Source: an uncultured Acidimicrobiia bacterium
GTDB lineage: Bacteria; Actinomycetota; Acidimicrobiia; Spongiisociales; JAENVV01
DNA length: 33,438 nt
Direction of reading: 5' to 3'
NCBI GenBank assembly: GCA_965366365.1
Contig: CBDUEV010000031.1
Coordinates: 1 to 33,438, forward strand
This document shows, piece after piece, positions 2,599 through 17,372 of the stretch. A program made the position numbers and the translations under genes. Within the stretch, counting starts at the first letter, position 1. Every line of letters begins with the position of its first letter. Below the pieces are notes generated by a model, which was not told where the DNA came from, ran no database searches, and saw only the letters and a program-made list of their open reading frames with translations.

Positions 2599-3954
2599 CT
2601 ACCTGTCCACGTCTCCGAGGACCGGGTCGAGGCTCGCCAAGGAGGCGATGGTGTCAGAGATGATCGAGTCGGCCAAGAGGATCGGCAGCGCCTGGAGATT
2701 GGCGAAGGAGGGTGCCCTGGTGTGCATTCTGAGCGGCTTGGCGCCGCCATCCGAGACGATGTAGCACCCGAGTTCGCCACGGGGTGACTCGATGGCGACA
2801 TACGCTTCGCCTTCGGGGACCTTGAACCCCTCCGTATAGATCTTGAAATGATGGATGAGGGCTTCCATCGACTCGTCGATCCTCTTGCGAGGCGGCGGCG
2901 TGATCTTGCGGTCCTCGGTCTTGTAATCGCCGAGGGGCATGGACTCGGCAGCCTGCCGGACGATCTTCAACGACTCTTCGATCTCGTGCACCTTGACCCG
3001 GTACCGATCGTAGGAGTCGCCCCGCTCTCCAACCACGACATCGAAGTCGTATTGCTCGATGCCCGAATACGGGGCCATCTTGCGCAAATCGTGGGCGAAT
3101 CCGGTGGAGCGGAGCGTTGGTCCCGTAATGGAGTGCGCCAGGCATTCCTCGGCGGTGATGATGCCGACATCTCGGGTCCGACGCAGCCAGATGGGGTTGG
3201 CCTTGAGGAGATCCTCGTATTCGGCCAGCATCGGCGGGAGAGCCTCGAGGATATCCTCGACGTCGGCTTCCCATCCGTCGGGCAGATCGGCCGCCACCCC
3301 GCCCGGTCGAATGAAGTTGTGGTTCATCCGCAGGCCGGTTGTCTTCTCGAAGAACGCCAGGATGCGCTCGCGGTCACGGAAGCCGTACAACATCATCGAG
3401 AGGGCTCCCACGTCCATCCCGTTGGTGGCGAGCGCCACCAGGTGGCTGGCCACCCGGTTCAGCTCCGACAGCATGATCCGAATCGCCTGAGCGCGCGGGG
3501 GGACCTCGATACCGAGCAACTGCTCGACCGCCAAGGAGAAACACAGCTCGTTGTGCATCGGGGCGAGGTAGTCCATGCGAGTCACGTTGGTCGGCCCCTG
3601 CATGAAGGTGAGCTCCTCGGCGGTCTTCTCCATGCCGGTGTGGAGGTAGCCGATGATCGGCTTGACCCGTCGAACGACTTCGCCCTCGAGTTCGATGTTG
3701 AGCCGCAAGACCCCGTGCGTCGAGGGATGCTGAGGACCCATGTTGATGATCATGCGTTCGTCGGAGTCGATCTGCTCGTCGTAGAGAACGTCGTCGACGA
3801 CTCGGGTGCCCAACTGTTCGATGAGCCGGCCACCGGTGTCGTCCGGCTTGAGTTTCTGAGCACCCTCGTCGGTGCCACCCACGAGCCAGTCGGGCTCCTC
3901 CGTTCCGGAGACCCAGACTTCCTTGGTGCGTCGCTCGCCGCGTGTGTCAGTCAT
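2599..3954 (-). CDS. nuoD: NADH-quinone oxidoreductase subunit D (49-kDa subunit)
   Basis: Hallmark NuoD sequence (MIINMGPQHPSTHGVLRL..., ...RMHTRAPSFANLQALP...). The ATG at 3952-3954 overlaps the nuoC stop (TGATG). The ORF-track start at 4035 over-extends into nuoC. Confidence 0.93.
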   Translation of the reverse strand: MTDTRGERRTKEVWVSGTEEPDWLVGGTDEGAQKLKPDDTGGRLIEQLGTRVVDDVLYDEQIDSDERMIINMGPQHPSTHGVLRLNIELEGEVVRRVKPIIGYLHTGMEKTAEELTFMQGPTNVTRMDYLAPMHNELCFSLAVEQLLGIEVPPRAQAIRIMLSELNRVASHLVALATNGMDVGALSMMLYGFRDRERILAFFEKTTGLRMNHNFIRPGGVAADLPDGWEADVEDILEALPPMLAEYEDLLKANPIWLRRTRDVGIITAEECLAHSITGPTLRSTGFAHDLRKMAPYSGIEQYDFDVVVGERGDSYDRYRVKVHEIEESLKIVRQAAESMPLGDYKTEDRKITPPPRKRIDESMEALIHHFKIYTEGFKVPEGEAYVAIESPRGELGCYIVSDGGAKPLRMHTRAPSFANLQALPILLADSIISDTIASLASLDPVLGDVDR

Positions 3955-4511
3955 CAGGTCACCCGGTTCGCTTCTTTGAACTGCACCGGCACGGACCCGA
4001 CGGCGTAGTCCTTGCGGAGAGGATGACCCACCCACTCATCGGGCATGAGGATCCGAGTCATGTCGGGATGGTCATCGAAGCTGATCCCGAAAAGGTCGTA
4101 GATCTCTCGCTCGAAGAAGTTGGCTCCGGGGTAGACAGGCACGAGGGATGGACAGGTCGGGTCGTCGGCATCGACGGGGATCCGCGCTCGCAGGCGCAGG
4201 CCGTGCTGGACGGAGAGCAAATTGGCCACGACCTCGAACCGCGTTCGCTTCTTGCCCAGGTAGTCGACGGCCGTGACGTCGGCGGCCATTTCGAAACCCG
4301 CCTCGTGTGCGGCCGTCGCGAAGGCTCGCCAGGTCTCCTTGGGAACCATCACCACGTCTTGTCGAGACGAGAGCATCCACTCGACATCGCCGAAGGGCTC
4401 GATGAGGTTCTTCAGAACGTCGTGGTCAGGAAGTGCTCGTTCCGGTTCGACAGGCGATTCGGTTTGGGTCTCTTCTGTTGCAGTCTCGTCAGTCACGGGC
4501 CAGCTCCCCAC
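3954..4511 (-). CDS. nuoC: NADH-quinone oxidoreductase subunit C (30-kDa subunit)
   Basis: NuoC motifs (FEVVANLLS..., [33 protein letters not shown]). GTG start at 4511, or alternatively GTG at 4496. It overlaps the nuoB 3' end. Confidence 0.92.
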
Positions 4512-4962
4512 TCGTGATCTTGTCCTGCAGCGTCAGAATGCCGTGGATGAGCGACTGAGGCCCGGGCGGGCAACCGGGGACGTAGACATCGACTGGCACG
4601 ACCTGGTCCACTCCCTGCACGAGCGCGTAGTTGTTGAACATGCCGCCCGTCGACGCGCAGGCACCCATCGAGATGACCCACTTGGGCTCGGGCATCTGGT
4701 CGTAGACCTGACGCAGCACCGGAGCCATCTTCTGAGACACCCGGCCCGCCACGATCATCAGGTCTGCCTGGCGCGGGGAGGCCCGAAAGACCTCCATGCC
4801 GAAACGGGCCAGGTCGTAGTGCGCCGTGCCCGTCGCCATCATCTCGATGGCGCAGCATGCCAGGCCGAACGTAGCGGGAAACATCGAGCGGGTGCGGGCC
4901 CACCGAGAAACCTTGTTGAGGTTCGTGAGCAGGAAGCCGGGAGGAGTGGTGGCCTGTGCCAT
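4489..4962 (-). CDS. nuoB: NADH-quinone oxidoreductase subunit B (20-kDa, [4Fe-4S] N2 subunit)
   Basis: [10 protein letters not shown]...[12 protein letters not shown]....[42 protein letters not shown]...VPGCPP. The ATG is directly adjacent to the nuoA stop. Confidence 0.95.
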
Positions 4963-5394
4963 CTAGGCGGCCCCGATCTTGGCCTGCTCCGGAGAGATGT
5001 CGCGCTGGATGCGACGCTCGCGCAGTGGCTGATTCCAATCCAAACCCCCGCGACCCCACACATACCCCAAGGTCTCCAGGACCAACACGGTGAAGATCCC
5101 GATCTCCAGAACGCCTAGCCATCCGAACTCGGGGTTGGGGAAGAGGACGGCCCACGCGAAGAGGAAGATCATCTCAACGTCGAAGATGACGAAGAGCATC
5201 GCCACGAGATAGAACTGGACCGGGAAGCGGTTCCGTGCCTCCGTCTCGGGAACGATGCCACACTCGTAGGGGGCGAGTTTCTCGGCGGTCGGTTTCTTCG
5301 GCGATACGAGGTATGCCAGCGACAGCGCTGCCACGACGAAGCCCACAGCCAACAGGAACATGATTGCAATCGGCAGATATGCCGGAAGGTCCAA
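4963..5394 (-). CDS. nuoA: NADH-quinone oxidoreductase subunit A
   Basis: YECGIVPETEARNRFPVQFYLVAMLFVIFDVEMIFLFAWAV. TTG start at 5394 with an AAGGAG Shine-Dalgarno 7 nt upstream. The N-terminal length matches actinobacterial NuoA. Confidence 0.9.
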   Translation of the reverse strand: MDLPAYLPIAIMFLLAVGFVVAALSLAYLVSPKKPTAEKLAPYECGIVPETEARNRFPVQFYLVAMLFVIFDVEMIFLFAWAVLFPNPEFGWLGVLEIGIFTVLVLETLGYVWGRGGLDWNQPLRERRIQRDISPEQAKIGAA

Positions 5395-5897: not shown

Positions 5898-7148
5898 TCA
5901 GCCTGTCAGAGAGCGCGGGGCCAACCGAATCATGCCTTCGAGCATGTGGTAGGCCCGATCTCCGATATGGCGGTCTTCTTCCTCGAGGAGGTTGGCCATC
6001 ACCTTGAGCACCCATTCCATGAGCGGCTTCGAGTGGAGCCCGGTGTGTGCCAGCGTCCGCATGACCGACGGGTAACCGATCAGTTTCACGAAGAGACGGG
6101 CCATCCGGTAGTAATCGCCATACGTCTCATCGAGTTCGGCCGGGTAGCGCTGAAGGAGGCCCAGATCATCGGCGACGAGCGCCTCGTGAATGTGCTCGGC
6201 GGCGAGACGCCCGGTCTCGTATCCGTAGGCGATGCCCTCTCCGTTCCACGGATTGATCGCCCCCATGGCGTCGCCCACCACCACCCAGTTGGCACCGGCG
6301 CGCGGGCCCTTGGAGAAGGACATCAGCAGCTTGCCGCCTTTGGGTTCGGAGAGTTGCGCCTCCTCGGACAGTTCCCAATGCTTCGGCGCAGCCTCGACAT
6401 AGTTCGCCATCATCGTGGTGGTGTTGACGTCCTTCCAATGCCGGAAGGTGGACAACAGGCCAACCCCGACATTGACGGTGCCGTCCCCCAGTGGAAACAC
6501 CCACCCATAGCCGGGCATGGAGTTCCCTGACTTGTCGCGAATATCGAGCTGGCTCTCCATGAACCCGTCTTGGGACATGGGTGAGGAGAAATAGCCGCGA
6601 GCCGCCAGACCCAACGGGTAATCCTTGTTTCTGACCGTCCCGAGCAGGCGACCGAAACGAGACGTCGACCCGTCGGCCACGACAACGACCTTGGCGCTCA
6701 TGATCTCGGTCTCGTCACCCGACGAGAGCGTGACGCCGGCCAGGCGGCCGTCGATCACGTGCGGCTTGGCTGTGGTCTTTGCTCTGATGACCGCCCCCTC
6801 CTTCTCGGCGAGGCGCGCCACCTGATCATCGAGGTCCATGCGCCGGATCACGCCGCCCCAGTTCGGGTACTTCGAATGCTGTGGCCACTCGAGTTCGAGA
6901 TGCAGCGAATCGCCCGCATAGGAGCGCAAGCCGACGATCTTGTGGAACTCCTGGCTGGCGAAATCGAACCCCATTTTCTGCAGCTCATAGATCGACCGGG
7001 GGGTGAGTCCGTCGCCGCAGGTCTTCTCGCGGGGGTACTCGCTCTTCTCGACCAGGACGACCGAATGTCCCGATCGCGCCAACCAATAGGCTGCCGCCGA
7101 GCCGGCCGGCCCACCACCCACCACCACAACATCAGGAGTGTTCGTCAT
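5898..7148 (-). CDS. Geranylgeranyl reductase family FAD-dependent oxidoreductase (MenJ-like menaquinone reductase candidate)
   Basis: N-terminal DVVVVGGGPAGSAAAYWLARSGHSVVLVEK...PREKTCGDGLTPRS is the GGR-family FAD fold. ATG start at 7146-7148. Confidence 0.85.
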   Translation of the reverse strand: MTNTPDVVVVGGGPAGSAAAYWLARSGHSVVLVEKSEYPREKTCGDGLTPRSIYELQKMGFDFASQEFHKIVGLRSYAGDSLHLELEWPQHSKYPNWGGVIRRMDLDDQVARLAEKEGAVIRAKTTAKPHVIDGRLAGVTLSSGDETEIMSAKVVVVADGSTSRFGRLLGTVRNKDYPLGLAARGYFSSPMSQDGFMESQLDIRDKSGNSMPGYGWVFPLGDGTVNVGVGLLSTFRHWKDVNTTTMMANYVEAAPKHWELSEEAQLSEPKGGKLLMSFSKGPRAGANWVVVGDAMGAINPWNGEGIAYGYETGRLAAEHIHEALVADDLGLLQRYPAELDETYGDYYRMARLFVKLIGYPSVMRTLAHTGLHSKPLMEWVLKVMANLLEEEDRHIGDRAYHMLEGMIRLAPRSLTG

Positions 7149-7242
7149 GGCGACAGGCTACCGGCGCCACCGCGCTCTCGTGAATCGTCGGCAGCCGGGT
7201 CGGACGATTTCTCGCGCGTATCCAAGCCTGTCTATATTCGCT

Positions 7243-7260
7243 TTGTGAAACCAGTCACAA
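7243..7260 (+). promoter_or_regulatory. Rex operator (ROP-like) TTGTGAAACCAGTCACAA, overlapping the rex start codon, with a TATATT -10-like hexamer at 7233-7238
   Basis: 17 of 18 positions match the actinobacterial Rex consensus TTGTGAA-N4-TTCACAA (by direct comparison). The GTG start of rex at 7245 lies inside the site, and TATATT lies 7 nt upstream of GTG. Confidence 0.6.
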
Positions 7261-7868
7261 TCCCGAGAGCCACCGTGGCCCGATTGCCTCTGTACCTCCA
7301 GTGCCTGGAAGGACTCGGCACCGAAACGCCCACCGTCTCTTCACAAGAGCTGGCGGTTATCGCCAACGTCAACTCGGCCCAGGTCCGCAAGGACCTGTCC
7401 TACCTCGGCTCGCACGGCGTCCGTGGCGTCGGCTACCAGCGGGCGGCCTTGGTCGACCTGATCCGACAGGAACTGGGACTCACCCACGAGTGGCCGATCG
7501 TCATCATCGGGGCCGGGAACCTCGGTTCCGCCCTCGCCAACTACGGCGGTTTTGCTGCAGCTGGATTCACCCTGGTCAGCGTCTACGACGTGGATCACAC
7601 CAAGATCGGGTCGGCCGTCGGTGGCATCACCGTGCGGAGCCTCGATCAGCTCGAAGCGGATGTCGCCGCACGGGACGTGGCGATGGGCGTGGTCACGACC
7701 CCCGCGGCGGCCGCCCAGGAAAGCGTCAACCGCCTCGTGGCGGCAGGGGTTCGTTCGATCCTCAACTTCGCCCCGTTCGTGGTGCAGGTCCCGAAGGGTG
7801 TCGACGTCCGGCATGTCGATCTTTCGACCGAACTTCAGATTCTCAGCTTCTATCGGGCTCGTCGCTGA
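7245..7868 (+). CDS. rex: Redox-sensing transcriptional repressor Rex
   Basis: IPRATVARLPLYLQCL... is the Rex N-terminal wHTH signature, and the Rossmann fold follows (VIIGAGNLGSALANY). GTG is the only in-frame start upstream of the conserved IP.ATV motif. There is no room for a leader or Shine-Dalgarno, so the mRNA is probably leaderless. Confidence 0.9.
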   Translation: MKPVTIPRATVARLPLYLQCLEGLGTETPTVSSQELAVIANVNSAQVRKDLSYLGSHGVRGVGYQRAALVDLIRQELGLTHEWPIVIIGAGNLGSALANYGGFAAAGFTLVSVYDVDHTKIGSAVGGITVRSLDQLEADVAARDVAMGVVTTPAAAAQESVNRLVAAGVRSILNFAPFVVQVPKGVDVRHVDLSTELQILSFYRARR

Positions 7869-7882
7869 CGACCCGTAGGGAG

Positions 7883-8242
7883 CTATTCGATCTGGCGGTT
7901 CTGTTCCTGTTCGAAACGGCTCAGCGCCACCATGAACATGACGAACAGAATCGCTGCGCCGAACATGAACGTCAGCGGCAGGATGCGGATCTCGAAGGCG
8001 TTCAAGCCTTCGAAGTTGGTCGGGCGCGGGCCGCGCGGGGCGTACAGCACAAACAACAAGGAGTTGAGCGCGCTCCATCCGAAGATTCCCGCCCCGGAGA
8101 CCAGAAACGCCAGCCTCTTACCGAGGTTCGTCGCCAGGATGAGGTAAGCCGTGCCGAAGAACACCAGGAAGCTGACGATGGTGAGCAGAATGCCGGTGAA
8201 CATCAGGTTGGCAGAGAGAATCTCTCTCATGAGTTCGCGCAT
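7883..8242 (-). CDS. Small hydrophobic membrane protein (119 aa, about 3 TM), last gene of the bc-type operon
   Basis: The ATG lies 4 nt after the diheme cytochrome c stop. The protein is strongly hydrophobic. No recognisable family. Confidence 0.55.
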   Translation of the reverse strand: MRELMREILSANLMFTGILLTIVSFLVFFGTAYLILATNLGKRLAFLVSGAGIFGWSALNSLLFVLYAPRGPRPTNFEGLNAFEIRILPLTFMFGAAILFVMFMVALSRFEQEQNRQIE

Positions 8243-8245
8243 GGC

Positions 8246-9673
8246 CTACCTCAACCTCTCGCCGCGTAGGTATTGAATGAGCAAATCGAGATCGGCTTCC
8301 GAGAGCACTTGCCCGAACGCCGGCATGTAGCCTCGCCCGATCCCGTTGACGCCATAACCCACGCCCTCCTCGGAACCCTTACCCAAGAAATCCTTCATGT
8401 CGTCGGCCGTGAGGAACTGAACGTTGGCTCGGCCATCCCACAGGGCCGGTCCAAAGGCGCCGGAGCCGATAGGGGCGGTGTAGGCGGGACCTGACGAGTA
8501 GCCGGCCGTGTGGCAGCGTGCGCAATACGACTGATACAAGCCCACCGCCCGCTCGGCCTCGGCCAGGTTGCCGTCGAAGGTGGCGTCGGCGACAGCCTGG
8601 AGGTCGACGGCATAGTCCCGGTTCTCTTGGGCGGCGAGAAGGAACTCCAACCCGGCTTCCGCTTGCTCGCGCAGCACGTCGGCGCGTTCGACGGTCAGGG
8701 TGAGGCCGTTGACCTCCTCCTCGAGCTTGGCGACGGCGCCGCTGACCAGGACCAGGTCTCCTTCGCCGGTGCCGAGTGTGTCGGGGTTCTCGACGTCGGC
8801 CAAGATGGCTGCCAGCCCCGGGTAGCCCGTGGCGGCAGCCTCGGTGGTGATGGCGGTGATGGCGGCCTCGGCCGTGTCAGAAACACCGTCTTCGTCGGTG
8901 TCGATACCTTCTCCGGCGGCATCGAGCGCACTTCGACCGGATGCGGCCAGAGGTTCCAGGACGGCCAGGAAGCCTGGAGCGTCGTCGATCTCCTGCAGCA
9001 GAGCCATCTGCGCTTCGATCGAGCCTTCCACCCGTGCGTCGGCCTCGGCGAGCTCGCCGAGCGCAGCGCTCACCCGCCCGTCCACCTGGGCGAGGGCCTC
9101 CTCCTGCGAAATCTGAATCGACTTCAGATACTCGAGCACTTCGTCGATCTGCTGCTCGTTCATGGGGCCGCCGCCGTCGGTCCCCCAGGCGGGCATCGGC
9201 GAATTGGGGCGGCCGTAGACGAGCCAGAATGTGATCTCCTCGTCGTCGTACCGGTAGGTGATGTCATTGAGGGCGGGAGCCGTCCACGCGACGGTGACGC
9301 CGCTGCGCTTGTCCACATAGCCGGCGGCGCCTCCGACGAGATCCGGACCGTGACACGAAGCGCACGCGAACTCTTCCACGTGCTCCAAGCCGCGCTCCAA
9401 GCCCTCTTCCTCGAACTGATGGACGAATCCTTCCTGGCGATCGATCTCCCCGAGCCAGTACACGGGGATCGAGATGGCGAGGACAGCCGAGAGGATCACC
9501 GACACCGACAGCACTCGATCGAGGCGACGGTTCTCGAGTTCGTCGTCGGTCTTGTACGGGTCGAGGTTGGGAGCGATCTCGTTGGAGCTCCGGCCGCGCA
9601 TCCCGGAGGCGACCAGGAAGGCCAACCAGCCCAACGCGCCCAGGGCTACAACGACGATGACGATACTGCTCAT
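8246..9673 (-). CDS. Membrane-anchored diheme cytochrome c (QcrC-like) with a long acidic insertion
   Basis: N-terminal TM, two CxxCH motifs (CASCH, CARCH), and MPAWG/MPAFG Met-ligand motifs. The ATG lies 3 nt after the Rieske stop. Confidence 0.85.
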   Translation of the reverse strand: MSSIVIVVVALGALGWLAFLVASGMRGRSSNEIAPNLDPYKTDDELENRRLDRVLSVSVILSAVLAISIPVYWLGEIDRQEGFVHQFEEEGLERGLEHVEEFACASCHGPDLVGGAAGYVDKRSGVTVAWTAPALNDITYRYDDEEITFWLVYGRPNSPMPAWGTDGGGPMNEQQIDEVLEYLKSIQISQEEALAQVDGRVSAALGELAEADARVEGSIEAQMALLQEIDDAPGFLAVLEPLAASGRSALDAAGEGIDTDEDGVSDTAEAAITAITTEAAATGYPGLAAILADVENPDTLGTGEGDLVLVSGAVAKLEEEVNGLTLTVERADVLREQAEAGLEFLLAAQENRDYAVDLQAVADATFDGNLAEAERAVGLYQSYCARCHTAGYSSGPAYTAPIGSGAFGPALWDGRANVQFLTADDMKDFLGKGSEEGVGYGVNGIGRGYMPAFGQVLSEADLDLLIQYLRGERLR

Positions 9674-9676
9674 GCG

Positions 9677-10552
9677 TTATCCACCGATACAGCTCGGACC
9701 TTGGGGGTACTTCGCAGATTTCACGACGGCACGCTCTGACTCGATGACCTGGCCGGTCTTGATGATGAAACGGCCATCCCTGTCTTCAACCACGAAGCGA
9801 TCGAGATTCCGAGGGGCCGGGCCGGCTTCGTACTCTCCCGAGACGTTGTATTTGGACCCGTGGCAGGGGCACTCGAACCCCTGCGAGGCATCGCACCAGG
9901 GAACACGGCAGCCCAGGTGAACGCATTTCTGGAAGAGCGCCATCAAACCGCCCACGGCCACATTGGCTTCGCTGAATTGCGACCCGGAGAGAGCGTCATC
10001 GCCGATGGGCACGATCCAGGATTTCGCTTCCGGCCAGAACACCGGGGTGATCGATCCGTCGGCCTGGAAAATCTGATTCCGGATCTCGGTCACGTCCCCC
10101 GCATCCACGTCCGACCCGAATCCACCCTTCACGCGTGGCCAGGCAAAGGAGAAAGAAGCCAAACCGACCAGACCGAGGAAGCCGAAGAAGCTTCCGGCCA
10201 GAGCACGGGTGAAGAACATCCGGCGAGTCACGCCGGCCTCCATCGGCGACAGTTCGACGACCTGGCGCACCACCTCCGACCGGACCGCCGGGGCCGAAGG
10301 CTCACTCGGGGTTTCGGTATCCGGGGCCACCGTCTCCGCCGGCGCGACCGTGTCGGCCGATGCTTCGGTCGCCGCCCGGGCAGCGACGATCCCGGCTGGG
10401 ACTCCCTTGTCGGCCTTGCGGGCATCGCGATCGAGCGCGTCTTTCCAAGCGGCATCGCGGGTGCTTTGCCGGTAGGCGATTCCGAAGGCCGCCAAGGCGG
10501 CGAATACCGCCACGGCCCCTACGAGAAGGAAGATCAGGTTCTGCGTCGTCAT
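9677..10552 (-). CDS. Rieske [2Fe-2S] iron-sulfur subunit of the bc-type complex
   Basis: CVHLGC...CPCHGS boxes and N-terminal TM helices. ATG at 10550-10552 overlaps the upstream stop (ATGA). The ORF-track start at 10849 over-extends. Confidence 0.9.
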   Translation of the reverse strand: MTTQNLIFLLVGAVAVFAALAAFGIAYRQSTRDAAWKDALDRDARKADKGVPAGIVAARAATEASADTVAPAETVAPDTETPSEPSAPAVRSEVVRQVVELSPMEAGVTRRMFFTRALAGSFFGFLGLVGLASFSFAWPRVKGGFGSDVDAGDVTEIRNQIFQADGSITPVFWPEAKSWIVPIGDDALSGSQFSEANVAVGGLMALFQKCVHLGCRVPWCDASQGFECPCHGSKYNVSGEYEAGPAPRNLDRFVVEDRDGRFIIKTGQVIESERAVVKSAKYPQGPSCIGG

Positions 10553-11778
10553 TCGAGGTTCACCCAGTCCTTGATGTCGTCGAAGTAGATGCCGTCCGAC
10601 CATGGGTAGGTGAAGTTGAAGCCAGGACCTCGGAACAACACACCCAGGATGGTGAGCATGGCGGCCCCCATGATGAAGTACGTGTACATGAAGATGGCGA
10701 ACTTCCTGTCCGAGGGCTTGTTGGACGGATTCCGGTCGACGTAGGGAATCGCCATGAATCCGACGAGCCCCACGATGGTGGGAACCGTCACACCGGCGAT
10801 CTGCGGGTCGAAGTAGGAGAGAAGTTCCTGAAGTCCGAGGAAGTACCACGGCGCCTTGGAGGGGTTGGGGGTGGCGTTGAAATTGGCGGCTTCCAGCAGC
10901 GGCGCCTGCAGACTGACCGACATCACGATCAGAACGGCGGTCACGGCGAGGAGCACGGCGAACTCGGCGATCATGAGATGCGGCCAGGTGTTCACCTTGT
11001 CGGTGGGCTCAGCCTTGACCTGTTGAATCGCTTTCGCTTTGACGACCGTCAGCAAGCGCTGGGTGCGGACACCCTCTGGCGCGGTTTCGGCTGGAGCGGT
11101 TGGCCGGACTGCCGTGGCGACCGCCGCCCCCGCTCCACCCGCCGCCGGGGTTTCGACCGCGGAGGCCGCGGGCGCATCCTCTTGCGGGATCGGCAGGTCG
11201 ACCACCTCGGCCTCAGGTGCCGGTGGGGCCTCAGGTGCCGATGGGGCGGCCGGTTCAGGGGTTGCCGGTTCAGCATCTGCCGGTTCAGCATCTGCCGGTT
11301 CAGGGGTTGCCGGGGTTGGGGCCGCAGCGGGAGTCTCGGGTGCCTCGTCTCCGAGCATCTCTGCCAGTACTGCGGCTTCTGAGGCGCCTGTGGCTTTCGC
11401 CTTGGCCTCGACCGACCGTTGCAGCAGCGAAGCCGGCATTCCGGCGCGCTCGGCTGCGGCGGCATAGTCCACGGGACCGCCGGCCGGCGCCGGGGCAGGG
11501 GCGGCTGGCGCTGCCGGCTCCGGTGCCGGGGCCTCGGGTTCGGGAGCCTTCGGTGCCGGCGCCTCGGGTTCTGGCGCCTCGGGTTCTGGCGCGGTCGGCT
11601 CGGCGGGCGGCGCAGCTTCGGTCGATGCAGGAGTCGTCGCCTCGGTGGCCGCAGGGGCCACATCGATCGGAGGACCTTCGCCCTTCATCTCGGCGAGCAC
11701 CTGCTCGACCGGAATGCCGAGGGCTTTCGCCTTCGCTTCGGCAGACCGTCGGAGGAGATGCTCTGGGATGTCAGCCAT
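10549..11778 (-). CDS. Cytochrome b C-terminal (subunit IV / PetD-like) protein with a long N-terminal extension. The extension is two copies of a ~35-aa helical module plus Pro/Ala/Glu-rich linkers.
   Basis: C-terminal WPHLMIAEF...SKAPWYFLGLQELL...P (PEWY-type Qo motif, variant APWY). AAGGAG Shine-Dalgarno 10 nt upstream of ATG 11776-11778. Low-complexity PEPEAP repeats were seen. Confidence 0.8.
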   Translation of the reverse strand: MADIPEHLLRRSAEAKAKALGIPVEQVLAEMKGEGPPIDVAPAATEATTPASTEAAPPAEPTAPEPEAPEPEAPAPKAPEPEAPAPEPAAPAAPAPAPAGGPVDYAAAAERAGMPASLLQRSVEAKAKATGASEAAVLAEMLGDEAPETPAAAPTPATPEPADAEPADAEPATPEPAAPSAPEAPPAPEAEVVDLPIPQEDAPAASAVETPAAGGAGAAVATAVRPTAPAETAPEGVRTQRLLTVVKAKAIQQVKAEPTDKVNTWPHLMIAEFAVLLAVTAVLIVMSVSLQAPLLEAANFNATPNPSKAPWYFLGLQELLSYFDPQIAGVTVPTIVGLVGFMAIPYVDRNPSNKPSDRKFAIFMYTYFIMGAAMLTILGVLFRGPGFNFTYPWSDGIYFDDIKDWVNLE

Positions 11779-11790
11779 CGATGGTGCTCC

Positions 11791-12579
11791 TTACAGCGGC
11801 CCTGAGATGCCGCCGTCCTTGCGGACTCGCCAGAAGTGTACGGCCATGAATATGACGATGATGAACGGGAAGAAGAGGACGTGGAGGACATACCAGCGGA
11901 GGATGGTGTCGGCCGACACTTCCACCGCGCCCAGCAGCAAGAACTTCACCTGGCCGCCGAACACCGGCACGAAGCCCGCCATGTTGGTCCCCACTGTCAC
12001 GGCCCACAGGGCGAGTTGATCCCACGGGAGCAGATATCCGGTGAACGAAAGCAAGAGGGTGAGCAGGAGGAGGATCACACCCACGACCCAGTTGAACTCG
12101 CGGGGAGGCTTGTAGGCGCCGTGATAGAAGACCCGGGACATGTGCAGGAACACCGACAAGACCATGAGGTGGGCGCCCCATCGGTGCATGTTGCGCACCA
12201 GAGAACCGAAAGCCACGGCCGTGGACAGCTCTGCGGTGTCTGCGTAGGCCGCTTCCGCCGTCGGGGCGTAATAGAACATCAAGAAGATGCCGGTGATGGT
12301 CAGCAGGATGAACAAGAAGAAACTGATCCCACCCAGGCACAATGTATAGGAGAGGCGCACCCCATGTCGCTTCACCTTCACCGGATGAAGGTGATAGAGG
12401 ACGTTGTTCATGACGACATAGCTCCGGTTGCGCGGAGAGTCCGAATAGCCCTTCTTGAAAGGGGATCCTGGACGGAGAACCGACTCCATCACCTGTGAAC
12501 CATGGAGCCGACTCCACAGGTCGCTGCCGGCGGTCTTCGCCTTCTCGAGGAGGCCGGTATTTCCGTTTTCGTTCGCCAA
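11791..12579 (-). CDS. Cytochrome b6-type (split cytochrome b, N-terminal four-helix part)
   Basis: His pairs in helices B and D ([17 protein letters not shown]; [22 protein letters not shown]). TTG start with GGAG upstream; the exact start is uncertain. Confidence 0.88.
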
Positions 12580-12599
12580 GTTCTGCTCCGTCTTCCTGA

Positions 12600-13049
12600 T
12601 TACATTCGCAGACCGTAGACGTAACCGTTCTTGTGGTCACGTTGGCCTGTGTCGATTTCCCAGGGCGCAAGGCCGGAGGCGGCCGCCTCATCGGACAAGG
12701 AACCCTCGAACTTCCCCAGAGTGATGACACCCGTCGGGCACCGATCGATGCAGAGAGCGCACCTCGTGCACTCATCCTCGTCCACGAGAAAGAACCCTTT
12801 GGCGTCGGGATCTGCCGACGGGTTCGCCACCCCGTGGGCTTCCGCGATGGCGTCGAGAGAGAGGTAGTGGATACATTTCCAGGGACAGATGTCGACGCAG
12901 CCCTCACAGAGGATGCACTCGGCCTGGTCGATGTGCAGGAACTGCTTGGGTTTCACGGCCGCCGTCAGGAAGGATCCGTCAACCACCGCCAACTGATAGT
13001 CGTCACGGATGGGCGGTATCTCGAACCAGACGTCACGGGGGGCAGCCAT
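12600..13049 (-). CDS. 2x[4Fe-4S] dicluster ferredoxin-like protein
   Basis: Two CxxCxxCxxxCP motifs ([24 protein letters not shown]). The ATG abuts the stop of the upstream membrane protein. Confidence 0.85.
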
Positions 13050-13688
13050 CTACTGCTCCGGCTCCGACTTGACGACCCTGGTCAAGGGTCGGCCATACGG
13101 CGAAACCTTGGCCACCTCGGTGACCGGACCACCCTTACCGAAATCCTGAATCTTGTAGGCGAACACGATGGCGGCCCCGAGCATGACCATGTGGTATCCG
13201 CCCGAGATGGCGTCTTTGACCACGGCCAAGCTGATGCTCACTTCATTGTTGAGGACGAGCCATCGCGGCAAGGTGAAGGCTTTTTGGGGAGTCCACCCGA
13301 GCGGGCCTTGGGCCAGGTTGAGCCATTCCGACGGAATGATCCCGAAGAAGACCACCAACTCGAACCAAGCGATGAGAGACACGAAAGAGGCACGGGCCCA
13401 CGTCATCGGTTTCCCGATCACCCACAACAACAGACACGCCACCACGATGAGCTGTGAGCCGCCGATGGCCACGATCTGCCCGAGTGTCACAACCGCGAAA
13501 TGGCGAGGGATCCAGCCGAGGTAGTCTACGTCGACAGGGACATCGACCCCATCGATGAATACCGTTTCCGGGAAATTGGCGTAGTGGGCGACGACGACGC
13601 CGAGGGCAATCGCCACGAAACCAGCCAAGAACAAGGTCGCGCCGGCAACCCGTCGCTGCGATTCGGTCATGTTTGCCAGTCGGTTCAT
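13050..13688 (-). CDS. Polytopic membrane protein of unknown family, first gene of the bc-type operon
   Basis: 4-5 predicted TM segments. Start chosen at ATG 13686-13688 (MNRLANM...); the ORF track gives TTG at 13727. No recognisable motif. Confidence 0.5.
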   Translation of the reverse strand: MNRLANMTESQRRVAGATLFLAGFVAIALGVVVAHYANFPETVFIDGVDVPVDVDYLGWIPRHFAVVTLGQIVAIGGSQLIVVACLLLWVIGKPMTWARASFVSLIAWFELVVFFGIIPSEWLNLAQGPLGWTPQKAFTLPRWLVLNNEVSISLAVVKDAISGGYHMVMLGAAIVFAYKIQDFGKGGPVTEVAKVSPYGRPLTRVVKSEPEQ

Positions 13689-14062
13689 GTGCGTTCCAAC
13701 AATCCACCGTGCATGGTCGAAGGGCAACTAGCCCACTCTCAGTCCCGAGACCCGACCAGCCTGGCTGTCAGCGTGAGCCGATCGTGTTGCCCAGATTACT
13801 AGCAGATATCCTCTTCGGCTCTCAATCCCGACGCCCGCATTCAGGCTGCTTTGACGGACCGCCCGGCGCACGGCAAAAATGAGCCGACGCCATTCGATGG
13901 GTGTCCGGGGCGAGTCCGTTATGATTCGGGCGCTTCCGCGCATGGCATGTTGAGGCGGCGCCGGCCAATCGGCGAAGCAGCAAGCGGCTATGGTCCGCCG
14001 ATCGGGCGGCTCGCCGGGAGCCGTGTATGTGATCGAGGCACACGAAACCGAGGAGCGCTGGT

Positions 14063-15502
14063 TTGGCAGTGAGTGCAACAGGGACCCGGACAAGGGGGAA
14101 TGTCTCTGGCGGCGATTCTGCCGCGCGCAGCGCCATGGTCATCTCCCTGGTTTTTCTCGTCCTGGCGGCGCTTCTCTCCTTCGTCGCCTCCCTCAAGTTT
14201 GCCTTTCCCTCGTTCGCCGACGGGAGCGCCCTGCTCTCGTACGGTCGTCTCCGCCCCATGGCCATCAACGCGTCCGTCTATGGCTTCCTCACCTTCAGCA
14301 ACCTCGCCGCCGTCTACTACCTGCTGCCGAGGCTGACCGGCACCCGGCTCTGGCAGGAACGACTGGCGGGTTTGAGCGTGGCCGTCACGGCCGCAGTCAC
14401 CGCATTGGCGATCTTCTCGGTCGGCTTCGGATTCAACGAGGGACAACTCCTCACCGAGTTCCCCCTCGTCATCGACATCATCCTGCTGGTCCTGTACCTG
14501 CTCCCCCTCCTGATCACCGTGCAGACGATCCGGGCGAGAACCGAGCAAAACATGTACATCAGTCTTTGGTACGTCCTCGCCGGACTCGTCTGGCTCGTCG
14601 GTTTGACGGTGGTGGGCAACATCCCGGGATCGGGCGGCGTGGCGTCCGCGCTCCAGAACCGCTTCTTCGTTTCGGGCCTCCTCGGAGTGTGGGTCATCGG
14701 CGTCGGAGTGGGAGCCGTGTACTACGTCCTCCCCAAGGCCACCGGCAACCCCCTGTACAGTCGCAACCTCGCCATGGCAGGTTTCTGGTCGCTGGTCTTT
14801 GCTCAGCTCTGGACGGGCGGCGCGTCGTTCGTCTTCGGTCCCGCCGGTGATTGGATCGAGACCGTGTCGGTGGTCTTCGCTCTCGCCATGGTGGTCCCAG
14901 CCCTCGCCGTGCTCGCCAACTTCATCGGCACTCTCGACGGGTCGTGGGATCTCATCCGCGACCGGTCGGAACTCCGGTTCGGCATCGTGGCCGCCATCAT
15001 GAGCGTGTTCCTGGCCGGCGTCACCGGCCTCCAAGGCTTCCGCTCGATCTCGGCGGTGGTGGGATTCACGACCTTCGAAGACGGGACTCGCTACGGACTC
15101 ATCTTCGGCGTCGGATATCTGTTGGCGGCCTCCTTCCTCTATCACGCCGTGCCGCGCTCCATGGGACGGGCACTGTTCTCGGAAGGCCTCGGTCGACTTC
15201 ACCTGCGACTCACGCTGTGGGGTGTGGGCGGGGTTGTCATCCTCACCTGGCTGGCCGGTCTCGCCTCGGGTTACACCTGGCTCGGCGGCGTGACGACCGG
15301 ATCCTTCGACAGCGTCGGCACCGGTTTCATCGAAACGCTGGACAACGTGCGCTCTCTGTACGTTCTGGCGGCAATCGCCGCGGCGGTGGCACTGGCCGGG
15401 CAGCTCGCTTTCGCCACCAACGTGTACCGAACGATCACCTCCGGAGAGCCGGTGGATCGGGAGATCCTCGTGGAAGTCCAGGACGAGGAGGTGGGAGCGT
15501 GA
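14063..15502 (+). CDS. CcoN-like (cbb3-type heme-copper oxidase subunit I fold) membrane protein lacking all canonical His metal ligands
   Basis: 12-TM protein with blocks alignable to CcoN (GRLRPMAINASVYGF; YYVLPKATGNPLYSRNLAMAGFW; TLDGSWDLIRDR). Only 2 His in 479 aa. TTG start with AGGAG 7 nt upstream. Confidence 0.8.
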   Translation: MAVSATGTRTRGNVSGGDSAARSAMVISLVFLVLAALLSFVASLKFAFPSFADGSALLSYGRLRPMAINASVYGFLTFSNLAAVYYLLPRLTGTRLWQERLAGLSVAVTAAVTALAIFSVGFGFNEGQLLTEFPLVIDIILLVLYLLPLLITVQTIRARTEQNMYISLWYVLAGLVWLVGLTVVGNIPGSGGVASALQNRFFVSGLLGVWVIGVGVGAVYYVLPKATGNPLYSRNLAMAGFWSLVFAQLWTGGASFVFGPAGDWIETVSVVFALAMVVPALAVLANFIGTLDGSWDLIRDRSELRFGIVAAIMSVFLAGVTGLQGFRSISAVVGFTTFEDGTRYGLIFGVGYLLAASFLYHAVPRSMGRALFSEGLGRLHLRLTLWGVGGVVILTWLAGLASGYTWLGGVTTGSFDSVGTGFIETLDNVRSLYVLAAIAAAVALAGQLAFATNVYRTITSGEPVDREILVEVQDEEVGA

Positions 15503-16338
15503 GCGAACATTCGGCAGCCGTGGCCGCCGCGCTCGGCGTCCCCGAGGACCTCGTCATCAAGTCGGCCACGGCGCGGGCCCAGGCTTCAGGAAGCACAACG
15601 GAGGAAGTCCTGGCGGCCTGGAGCGGCGGCGGAGAGGTCCCGGCGGCCGCTCCGAGCGCCACGCCCCCCGCCACCGACGAGGCCCAGGCGGCGACCCCAC
15701 CGGCTACCGATCCCGCTCCGGCCGACATGTCCCCGGAACCCGGGGAAGCCGGCGCCGAATCACCGCTTCCTGTGGAGGGCGCCCCTGTCTCGTCACCTGG
15801 CGGATCTGGCCCGGTCACCGTCATCGATCGCCGGGCGAAGGCCGCCCCGATACTGACCGGCCGCCGCGATCGACCCCTCCTGGTACTCGCCGGCCTCGTG
15901 GCATTGTTCGTCCTCGGCGCCGTCTTTGCCGTCAGCCTGCCCGGGGCTGAGGCTCGGAACCTGGCGGCCGATCAGCTGCCCGGAACCACTCCTCAGCTCA
16001 GCGAATTGGCCCAGGAAGGTAGAGAGATCTATCTCACGGAAGGTTGCTTCTACTGCCACACCCAACTCGTACGATCGGTGGTGACCGACGTCGGGCTGGG
16101 CACGGTGACCGAACCCGGGACCGCACCCAGCCTGTCACCCGAGACGTATGGCTTCCAGCGGGTCGGACCCGATCTCACCCACGTTGGATCGCGTGAGCCG
16201 ACCAACGATGCGGCCTGGCTGCGTAGCTACCTGGAAGACCCCACGGCCGAGCGACCGGGGACGCTCCAGCCCAGCTACGCGTACCTGTCGGACAATGAGA
16301 TGGACGCACTCGTGCAGTTCCTCCTGGAATCGGAGTAG
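15499..16338 (+). CDS. CcoO-like membrane-anchored monoheme cytochrome c with an N-terminal helical module
   Basis: GTG start overlaps the CcoN-like stop (GTGA) and is preceded by GGAGG. One TM helix, then REIYLTEGCFYCHTQLVR...GPDLTHVGSR...YLSD (CcoO-like). The ORF-track entry 14851..16338 is the same frame, over-extended. Confidence 0.8.
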   Translation: MSEHSAAVAAALGVPEDLVIKSATARAQASGSTTEEVLAAWSGGGEVPAAAPSATPPATDEAQAATPPATDPAPADMSPEPGEAGAESPLPVEGAPVSSPGGSGPVTVIDRRAKAAPILTGRRDRPLLVLAGLVALFVLGAVFAVSLPGAEARNLAADQLPGTTPQLSELAQEGREIYLTEGCFYCHTQLVRSVVTDVGLGTVTEPGTAPSLSPETYGFQRVGPDLTHVGSREPTNDAAWLRSYLEDPTAERPGTLQPSYAYLSDNEMDALVQFLLESE

Positions 16339-16343
16339 GTCGA

Positions 16344-17372
16344 ATGAGCGATTTTCTCGCCGCCGCCGCTGCCGCCGTAGGTGGGCCGGAAGAGCTCGTC
16401 GAGCGATCGGCCCGCGCCCGCGCCGCAGCCACGGGTGCGGACTACGAAGCGATACTCCAGGCTTGGGCCGGCGGCGGTGAAGCGCCTGCCCCGTCGACAG
16501 TGTCCGGTTCAGCACCTGCCGCCGCGGAGGAGCCATCGGCGCCGGAAACGCAGCCACCAGCCGAGGCACCTTCCGAAGCTCCGGCAGAGGCGCCGGACCC
16601 GCCCGCACCGTCGGGCGTGGAAGCCGCCGCGGACGAGGGTCGGGATGCTCCCCGCGTCGTCGAGGGCCCTCCCCCACCCGCAACGGTGAGCGTCGAGGAA
16701 GCCGCCGATTGGGAGGTGGTGACCACCGTCCCGGCTGCCGGCCTCAAGGAACGAACCGCTTCGCTCATTCCTGCCTGGCTGATGGGTTTCTTCGTTCTCA
16801 TTCCGCTCTTTGCGGTCGCCTACATCGCCGTGTACTCGAACGGACCTGAGTGCGGGTCGGGCGGCCAGCTCAGGGTCGATTTCCGCAATCAACTCGTCAA
16901 CTGCGACGGATCCGCCTACGAGGGCGCGGGCGGGCCTGGCGGTGGCGGGATCAACTACGTGGCGATCGGTGCGGACGTCTACACCAATGTGGCTCAGTGC
17001 GCAGGATGTCACGGTTCCGACGGTGGCGGTGGCAGTGCCGGCCCCACCCTCTTGGGGGTCAACGGGACCTTCGGTTCCTGCGCCGACCACCAACAGTGGA
17101 TCACTCTGGGCAGCCAAGGATGGATCGACACGATCGGCCCGAACTATGGGGATGCCAACAAGCCGGCCGGGGGCTTCGGAGCCAAGATGCCCGGTTTCGC
17201 CTCACTCACAGCCGAGCAACTCGCGGCCGTGACCGTGTACGAGCGGGTGGTGTTCGGCGGAGCAGGCATCGATGAAACACTCGAGAATTGTGGCCTCGTA
17301 GAGACCGAAGAGGCACCAGATGAGGCACCGACCGATGCCGAAACGACCCCAACCACAGAGCCCGCTTCCTGA
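16344..17372 (+). CDS. Membrane-anchored monoheme class-I cytochrome c (CcoP-like C-domain) with an N-terminal helical module
   Basis: GGAGTAGG Shine-Dalgarno. The N-terminal module and a Pro/Ala/Glu linker are followed by one TM helix, a single CAGCH, and an MPGF Met ligand. Confidence 0.8.
   Translation: MSDFLAAAAAAVGGPEELVERSARARAAATGADYEAILQAWAGGGEAPAPSTVSGSAPAAAEEPSAPETQPPAEAPSEAPAEAPDPPAPSGVEAAADEGRDAPRVVEGPPPPATVSVEEAADWEVVTTVPAAGLKERTASLIPAWLMGFFVLIPLFAVAYIAVYSNGPECGSGGQLRVDFRNQLVNCDGSAYEGAGGPGGGGINYVAIGADVYTNVAQCAGCHGSDGGGGSAGPTLLGVNGTFGSCADHQQWITLGSQGWIDTIGPNYGDANKPAGGFGAKMPGFASLTAEQLAAVTVYERVVFGGAGIDETLENCGLVETEEAPDEAPTDAETTPTTEPAS

Follow-up and report, generated by a model that had tools for sequence, protein, structure and literature searches.

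The E2 component of 2-oxo-acid dehydrogenases carries the PSBD (Pfam E3_binding, PF02817), a helical docking mini-domain of 35–45 residues that sits on a swinging arm with flexible Ala/Pro/Glu-rich linkers. In respiratory chains, cytochrome cy and the tethers of the bc1–cbb3 and bcc–aa3 kind combine a transmembrane (TM) anchor with a long Ala/Pro-rich linker that holds a small domain near its partners. Here we describe a small helical module with a likeness to both, which recurs four times in three different respiratory subunits (a PetD-like protein, a CcoO-like protein, and a membrane-anchored cytochrome c) encoded in a stretch of DNA from an uncultured Acidimicrobiia bacterium (assembly GCA_965366365.1, contig CBDUEV010000031.1; 33,438 nt, the whole contig stretch, hereafter the window). 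We predict from sequence that this module is most likely a protein–protein docking handle that is lineage-specific to the class Acidimicrobiia.

The PSBD is the closest functional analogue of the module, not a homologue. The module is likewise a small helical domain beside Ala/Pro-rich linkers that are modelled at a predicted local distance difference test score (pLDDT) below 50, a likeness of architecture only; the PSBD consists of two helices and a loop and belongs to a soluble acyltransferase core, whereas the module has three predicted helices and lies N-terminal to a TM anchor. Nor was PF02817 among the 25 Pfam families listed for 82 module sequences (13 families outside that list were each matched by at most one of the 82). 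The Rho_N, SAP, and HeH domains resemble the module in size, in a helix-turn-helix appearance, and in a conserved turn Gly, but they are basic and bind nucleic acids, whereas the module is acidic and is predicted by AlphaFold2 to be a three-helix bundle; these families gave no Pfam match on the full-length carrier proteins and were not among the families listed for the 82 module sequences at E ≤ 10. The tethers of the cytochrome cy type, in turn, are periplasmic and hold a redox domain, whereas the tether described here is predicted to be cytoplasmic and its helical head to be cofactor-less and without any conserved pattern of His, Cys, or Met ligands. A tethered docking domain is thus already a known kind of device, and what is new is a cytoplasmic one common to subunits of different respiratory complexes. 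Supercomplex wiring as such is common in bacteria that lack a soluble cytochrome c (cf. bioRxiv 10.1101/2020.06.27.175620).

Four Copies of One Module in Three Respiratory Subunits

A preliminary description of the window had reported an N-terminal helical unit of about 35 aa that recurs four times in three different respiratory subunits between positions 11380 and 16470. This recurrence is borne out: the window holds exactly four copies, two on the PetD-like protein and one each on the CcoO-like protein and the membrane cytochrome c (table 1), and the four segments align without gaps and share nine invariant positions. They follow the core motif P-E-x-L-[LV]-x-R-S-A-x-A-[RK]-A-x-A-x-G-x(3)-[ED]-x-[VI]-L-A-x-[MW]-x-G, in which the [MW] position before the final Gly separates the M-type from the W-type copies discussed below. 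The reported places were right to within a few residues, although the start of the interval clips copy 2 and its end clips copy 4, and the N-terminal helical unit is real, although in its complete form it spans about 45 aa and includes an extra N-terminal helix. This helix is present in the internal and the W-type copies and absent only from the very first PetD copy.

When a profile built from three copies was searched against the six-frame translation of the whole window, the omitted fourth copy was recovered at a domain E-value between 1.4e-8 and 1.6e-11, and the next best match had E > 0.5. The omitted copies scored 35–47 bits, compared with a mean of about 0 and a maximum of 12.6 bits for 2000 composition-preserving residue shuffles per copy (copy 1, 41.6 bits against a shuffle maximum of 9.4; copy 2, 34.9 against 10.9; copy 3, 46.6 against 12.6; copy 4, 43.1 against 7.2). 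A profile from 82 module sequences again found exactly four copies in the window. These results bear on the explanation that the preliminary description had itself raised against its claim, namely a chance resemblance from Ala-rich, low-complexity composition. The segments are indeed Ala-rich (0.17–0.33) and stand next to low-complexity linkers; nevertheless, the copies far outscore their shuffles, database matches lie far beyond chance (187 representatives at E ≤ 1e-10), and position-specific conservation and a codon-position signature (below) mark constrained coding sequence, so that we regard this explanation as refuted and its remaining probability as negligible. Mis-called start codons were also rejected, since the codon-position signature and the conserved positions of the N-terminal Met speak against them.

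Fold, Linkers, and Topology

AlphaFold2, run on the cytochrome c copy with the 82-sequence alignment, placed helices at residues 5–12, 16–30, and 34–41, with a mean pLDDT of 86.6 and values of at least 90 in 38 of the 50 residues. The preliminary description had wondered about a helix-turn-helix; the predicted structure is a three-helix mini-domain rather than a simple hairpin of that kind. In a full-length AlphaFold2 model of a fourth carrier, a caa3-linked protein from other genomes (below), the module has a pLDDT of about 90, residues 48–96 fall below 50, and the membrane domain follows; as modelled, the carrier is a folded head on a disordered tether.

The module region gave no match when the full carriers were scanned against Pfam-A (2025 copy), and a Pfam scan of the 82 module sequences at E ≤ 10 returned no consistent family (models of the HTH type appeared, below threshold, in one to three of the 82). 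A scan of NCBIfam r20 gave no family match for the module, and the best match of the 82-sequence profile among PDB sequences had an E-value of 0.67. The only natural structural matches to the predicted fold were weak and generic, to three-helix protein- or RNA-binding mini-domains such as ANTAR (NasR, EutV, Rv1626, AmiR), UBA (HHR23A), and RNA polymerase omega. No paper on the locus or the module was found in the literature. The module is therefore a domain family undescribed in Pfam, NCBIfam, PDB sequences, and the literature searched, and it defines a new family that is easily modelled.

Each head is followed by a linker and then by the TM anchor, and the composition of the linkers agrees with their earlier designation as Pro/Ala/Glu-rich. 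Across the window they span 63–88 aa, have a combined Pro and Ala fraction of 0.46–0.67, contain almost no Lys or Arg, and carry net charges of −9 to −15. The first PetD-like linker (taken as the 67-aa stretch 36–102) has fractions of 0.34 Pro and 0.33 Ala and a net charge of −10, the second 0.24 Pro, 0.33 Ala, and −14; the CcoO-like linker (aa 46–108, positions 15634–15822) has a net charge of −9 with no Lys or Arg at all, and the cytochrome c linker (aa 46–130, positions 16479–16733) one of −15. The heads themselves are acidic, with net charges of −1, −4, −3, and −3 for copies 1–4. Across all carriers the tether is 60–250 residues long and varies greatly in length among orthologues, and basic residues directly precede the first TM helix in every carrier.

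The N-termini of the CcoO-like protein and cytochrome c should be cytoplasmic because their CxxCH haem domains must be periplasmic, and known b6f structures place the N-terminus of subunit IV at the n-side. The topology thus predicts that the modules are cytoplasmic heads on N-in membrane proteins. A signal or Tat peptide was considered and rejected, as the module has no hydrophobic core and no twin-arginine and is followed by 60 or more acidic residues; a haem or metal site was rejected too, there being no conserved His or Cys.

Distribution and Carriers

An exhaustive profile search over 1.84 billion protein cluster representatives, of the kind that the preliminary description had proposed, found 438 representatives at E ≤ 1e-3, including the 187 at E ≤ 1e-10 mentioned above; one match, a 6326-aa repeat protein, was set aside as a false positive. 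A genome scan (one representative genome per species, with an alignment of M-type copies only) yielded at least 260 loci, the majority of them under the labels Acidimicrobiia or Actinomycetota. Several locus records are labelled otherwise, for example Acidobacteriota or Gammaproteobacteria, and we suspect mis-binning in these cases.

The complete window-like arrangement, with modules on the same three proteins, is found in at least 42 of 80 loci: cytochrome c, CcoO, and CcoN lie on one side, and the membrane protein, Fer4, PetB, PetD, Rieske, and cytochrome c on the other. The divergent two-operon layout that had been noted for the window, where 335 bp separate the two divergently transcribed operons, is therefore genuine and is also kept in other genomes. 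The second PetD copy is a less common feature, occurring in about 9–12 of the 80 related loci (roughly one in eight).

All classifiable carriers are PetD-like, CcoO-like, cytochrome c, members of the fourth family, or a small subunit of the b6c operon. PetD-like proteins have one to four copies and cytochromes c one to five, and the CcoO-like proteins have a single copy in 64 of 65 cases; the one apparent two-copy CcoO (P0056) was discounted, since a frameshift seems to carry its reading frame on into the next gene downstream. The highest copy numbers, seven in P0024 and three in P0029, belong to proteins that were initially scored as PetD-like; their C-termini are homologous to the 119-aa subunit of the b6c operon in the window (44% identity, E 2e-27). 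At another locus (L172), a multi-module protein adjoins a homologue of the 225-aa membrane protein outside any b6c operon, and the open reading frame (ORF) upstream looks like a frameshifted continuation with further module copies.

The fourth carrier is a polytopic membrane protein of about 390 aa with an N-terminal W-type module in all 15 sequences read. It adjoins an operon of the caa3 type (COX2-cytc/COX1/COX3/COX4) in each of the six loci with enough flank, and CtaG and/or CtaB are also present beside it in most of these six. Neither the fourth carrier nor the multi-copy proteins gave a match when scanned against Pfam and NCBIfam. One member has a further segment fused to its C-terminus, annotated at the source as cupredoxin-like, in which a C...H...M pattern can be made out by eye.

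An independent metagenome scan, seeded with W-type modules, returned 50 cytochromes c, 50 CcoO, 36 PetD, 8 fourth carriers, and 26 truncated ORFs; one further unclassified match appears by eye to be a cytochrome c cut by a contig end, and the scan produced no new carrier class. The module marks membrane proteins of the aerobic respiratory chain, and nothing else was detected; in the b6c complex it is borne by the PetD-like protein or, in some lineages, by the small terminal subunit. It is common to otherwise unrelated subunits of two complexes, as the preliminary description held, and in other genomes to a third, caa3-linked protein. Public names of the carriers are absent, "hypothetical," or wrong; the label "energy transducer TonB," for example, can be traced to the Pro-rich linkers.

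Conservation, Subtypes, and Gene Conversion

Codon-position identity was computed over 61–80 related genome loci per copy. For positions 1, 2, and 3 it was 0.88, 0.94, and 0.47 in the PetD copy (80 loci), 0.72, 0.76, and 0.39 in the CcoO copy (62 loci), and 0.76, 0.80, and 0.39 in the cytochrome c copy (61 loci), a pattern that identifies the module as a domain that is translated and held by strong purifying selection. The genome loci had been picked with the M-type-only alignment, which biases that set towards M-type conservation, and the comparison was repeated on metagenome loci seeded with W-type modules, which are independent of M-type sequence. In these W-seeded loci the N-terminal M-type module of PetD has a mean pairwise identity of 0.78–0.84, compared with 0.83 for cytochrome b6, 0.75 for the PetD membrane domain, 0.74 for Fer4, and 0.42 for CcoN; the M-type copy hence matches cytochrome b6 in conservation, equals or exceeds the PetD membrane domain, surpasses Fer4, and reaches about twice the value of CcoN. 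Over both locus sets, the mean pairwise identity of copy 1 across genomes is 0.78–0.86, and the Pro, Arg, Ser, Ala, and Gly positions of the module are near-invariant. To be conserved to the same degree as cytochrome b6, a cytoplasmic appendage of 33 residues must, we reason, make specific contacts.

Two subtypes track the carrier. The residue before the final Gly is Trp without exception (196 of 196 copies) on CcoO, cytochrome c, and the fourth carrier (W-type) and Met in 99 of 113 copies on PetD-like proteins (M-type). The modules of cytochrome c and CcoO show concerted evolution: within a genome they have a mean identity of 0.71, whereas orthologues compared between genomes have 0.61 (cytochrome c) and 0.56 (CcoO). 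In 7 of 62 loci (L018, L058, L068, and L080 among them) the CcoO and cytochrome c copies share 95% or more of their nucleotides, and the match extends to synonymous sites; in the window, copies 3 and 4 have only 58% protein identity. Such near-identical DNA within genomes points to recurrent gene conversion between the heads of the CcoO and cytochrome c genes, which lie about 0.8 kb apart, and implies that the modules of these two proteins are functionally interchangeable.

A CcoN-Like Neighbour without Histidine Ligands

The first gene of the operon that carries copies 3 and 4 encodes a CcoN-like protein that retains the fold of haem–copper oxidase subunit I (Pfam COX1, 141 bits). Compared with CcoN of P. 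stutzeri (3mk7_A), it has the substitutions H60A, H207S, H257A, H258S, H345T, and H347Y, and none of the six His residues that bind haem b, haem b3, and CuB remains. With such a sequence, it cannot serve as a catalytic oxidase subunit of the known kind. Its two partners, the CcoO-like protein and cytochrome c, still have their CxxCH sites. In the CcoN relatives read, down to 33% identity, the canonical His motifs (such as RP[LM]H, GHNA, and PHH) are absent, judged by eye; P0202, which is 33% identical to the CcoN-like protein, keeps the His motifs, also by eye, and appears to be a normal oxidase. The preliminary description had proposed to follow the module together with the His-less CcoN across genomes, and module-bearing neighbours do persist even where CcoN identity has dropped to 33–41%. 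At one distant locus (L081, positions 8001–9911) CcoO is fused to the C-terminus of CcoN in a single 636-aa protein; the fused CcoO is without a module, and the PetD (232 aa, one copy) and cytochrome c of this locus retain theirs.

Weighing the Possible Roles

The small head, the flexible acidic tether, the tandem valency, the extreme conservation, and the confinement to one functional network together give the module the build of a docking domain. A docking or assembly domain had been suggested in the preliminary description; the sharing of the module, its predicted folded head, its long tether, its variable valency, and its conservation all fit, while binding itself and the target of binding are what we infer. 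As to what the handle does, we tentatively put forward, short of an even chance, that it holds respiratory complexes together or serves to co-assemble them. On their tethers, the modules would reach tens of nanometres into the cytoplasm, where they may bind each other or a conserved site on partner complexes; this would keep the quinol oxidase (M-type) near its cytochrome c and oxidase partners (W-type) while the complexes assemble or within a supercomplex, and the tandem copy number (1–7) would tune valency. Several points weigh against this proposal: no experimental work on any carrier was found in the literature; CcoO and cytochrome c presumably belong to one complex in any case, which makes their mutual tethering unnecessary; and the M-type (0.78–0.86) is far more conserved than the W-type (0.56–0.61), which a conserved third party fits better than a co-evolving M–W pair. 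A strictly heterotypic arrangement, in which M-type heads on the b6c complex would fasten like Velcro to W-type heads on the cofactor-less cbb3-like scaffold with its two c-type cytochromes and, by way of the neighbouring membrane protein, to the caa3 oxidase and so wire a respirasome on the n-side with a valency of one to seven, strikes us as unlikely.

A close rival of complex tethering, possible in our view but doubtful, is that each module recruits the same conserved cytoplasmic factor by fly-casting on its flexible tether; an assembly or insertion chaperone, an adaptor of a quality-control protease, a redox regulator, or an electron-transfer protein would be candidates. A highly conserved partner would suit an M-type copy that hardly varies even at its surface residues, and the anatomy mirrors that of swinging-arm docking domains that bind soluble enzymes; moreover, modules sit on two subunits of one complex (CcoO and cytochrome c) and are interchangeable by gene conversion, the operon itself encodes a cytoplasmic 2x[4Fe-4S] protein, and a regulator of the Rex type adjoins it. 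However, no soluble protein that carries or matches the module was seen in the profile search, among the classified carriers, or in the metagenome scan, conserved synteny gave no candidate gene beyond the operon's own subunits, and two carrier-specific subtypes need the extra assumption of two partners or two sites. Improbable, to our minds, is a regulator that acts within one protein or complex, with the module folding back as a lid, gate, or assembly clamp on the n-side face of its own complex (for example, on the Fe-S subunit or on cytochrome b6/PetD). The first PetD copy, which is without helix 1 and may need a partner surface to complete its fold, would be accounted for in this way, as would a PetD module as conserved as cytochrome b6; against it, one intramolecular site would not call for tethers of 60–250 residues and up to seven copies, the module is shared by unrelated complexes with different cytoplasmic faces, and the AlphaFold2 model of the fourth carrier separates the module from the membrane domain by a low-confidence linker.

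Two further explanations would dispense with a protein partner. If the acidic tails were the functional part, as entropic bristles or spacers for crowding control or for exclusion of the nucleoid or ribosomes, the helices would be a mere stabilizing cap; the linkers are long, acidic, of low complexity, and very variable in length among orthologues, as expected of bristles, yet a partnerless cap would neither keep an identity of 0.78–0.86 with near-invariant positions across the class nor be duplicated in tandem with its own linkers, and we hold this to be decidedly improbable. The preliminary description had also entertained a nucleic-acid-binding hairpin (Rho-N/SAP/HeH-like, or RNA binding of the ANTAR kind) that would anchor the complexes to DNA or RNA. 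A helix-Gly-turn-helix appearance and the scattered, sub-threshold HTH-type Pfam matches in one to three of the 82 sequences speak for such a hairpin, which nevertheless seems barely credible for modules with net charges of −1 to −4 on linkers of −9 to −15, a predicted three-helix fold, and no consistent profile match to families of this kind among the 82 sequences. Indeed, acidic heads on acidic extended tethers make the binding of DNA, RNA, or anionic membranes alike unlikely.

As a docking handle, the module would be the first dedicated cytoplasmic domain common to subunits of different respiratory complexes, and it would provide a sequence tag for membrane proteins of the respiratory network, including the caa3-linked protein and a cbb3-like complex without catalytic metals. 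It would also make the supercomplex organization of the Acidimicrobiia, which are abundant and mostly uncultured, testable with 45-residue peptides. Were M-type and W-type heads to fasten to each other, this would be a principle of supercomplex assembly that is not known from other respiratory chains. Together, the module and the cofactor-less CcoN point to an unusual, probably supercomplex-based respiratory chain in a widespread uncultured class.

Gene Content of the Window

The coordinates of the genes and domains are collected in table 1. The PetD-like protein matches Pfam PF00032 over aa 298–382 with 30.8 bits (cutoff 20.7) and scores 19.3 on the NCBIfam equivalog TIGR01156 (cutoff 127); by these scores it is a divergent relative and not the cyanobacterial/plastid equivalog. 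The CcoO-like protein, in which the CxxCH site is present as CFYCH, matches PF02433 with 67.9 bits (cutoff 29.6) and scores 65 on the NCBIfam equivalog TIGR00781 (cutoff 200); as a cbb3 subunit II it is thus divergent. Cytochrome c matches PF00034 with 33.3 bits (cutoff 21.3) and has a weak FixP_N match at aa 134–165.

Table 1. Features of the window and their nucleotide positions.
Feature	Positions	Strand	Remark
b6c-type operon with module copies 1 and 2	7883–13727	−	Pfam assignments
225-aa membrane protein, no family	13050–13727	−	First gene of b6c operon
2x[4Fe-4S] protein, cytoplasmic, ferredoxin-like	12600–13049	−	
Cytochrome b6	11791–12579	−	
PetD-like protein, 409 aa	10549–11778	−	
Module copy 1, M-type, without helix 1 (PetD-like aa 1–36)	11671–11778	−	Profile E 3.7e-18
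PetD-like linker 1, acidic Pro/Ala-rich (aa 37–102)	11473–11670	−	
Module copy 2, M-type, complete three-helix form (PetD-like aa 103–148)	11335–11472	−	Profile E 3.8e-18
PetD-like linker 2, acidic Pro/Ala-rich (aa 149–236)	11071–11334	−	
PetD-like membrane domain (cytochrome b C-terminal/subunit IV-like) and stop codon	10549–11070	−	PF00032
Rieske protein	9677–10552	−	ATG overlaps PetD stop
Dihaem cytochrome c	8246–9673	−	
119-aa membrane protein	7883–8242	−	Last gene of b6c operon
CcoN-like protein	14063–15502	+	First gene of operon with module copies 3 and 4
CcoO-like protein	15499–16338	+	GTG start overlaps CcoN-like stop codon
Module copy 3, W-type (CcoO-like aa 1–45)	15499–15633	+	Profile E 5.2e-18
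CcoO-like linker, acidic Pro/Ala/Thr-rich	15634–15852	+	
CcoO-like TM anchor and mono-haem FixO domain (CFYCH)	15853–16338	+	PF02433
Membrane-anchored mono-haem cytochrome c, 342 aa	16344–17372	+	
Module copy 4, W-type (cytochrome c aa 1–45)	16344–16478	+	Profile E 3.7e-18
Cytochrome c linker, acidic Pro/Ala/Glu-rich	16479–16757	+	
Cytochrome c TM anchor and mono-haem domain (CAGCH)	16758–17372	+	PF00034
Rex-type redox-sensing regulator	7230–7868	+	Put_DNA-bind_N and CoA_binding
Geranylgeranyl-reductase-like flavoprotein	5898–7148	−	
Start of complex I operon (nuoA, B, C, D homologues)	2599–5394	−	
624-aa protein	532–2406	−	FG-GAP repeats and S-layer homology domain

Within the b6c operon, the 225-aa membrane protein and the 2x[4Fe-4S] protein at the start are unusual for Rieske/cytochrome b complexes. 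Cytochrome b6 has a "CLGG" motif that we take to resemble the Cys by which b6f/b6c complexes bind haem ci. An additional TM helix is found at the N-terminus of the Rieske protein, which also has a Pro/Ala/Glu/Thr-rich stretch of its own, followed by a twin-arginine-like "RRMFF" segment and a second hydrophobic helix; this protein has no module copy.

The regulator of the Rex type adjoins the end of the b6c operon, and two distant loci, L081 and L083, have it in a similar position; this suggests control that responds to NADH/NAD. Upstream lie the start of the complex I operon and the flavoprotein, both of which recur as neighbours in L081, and because these genes are also present the window can be described as a respiratory gene island. 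The 624-aa protein is unrelated to the module.

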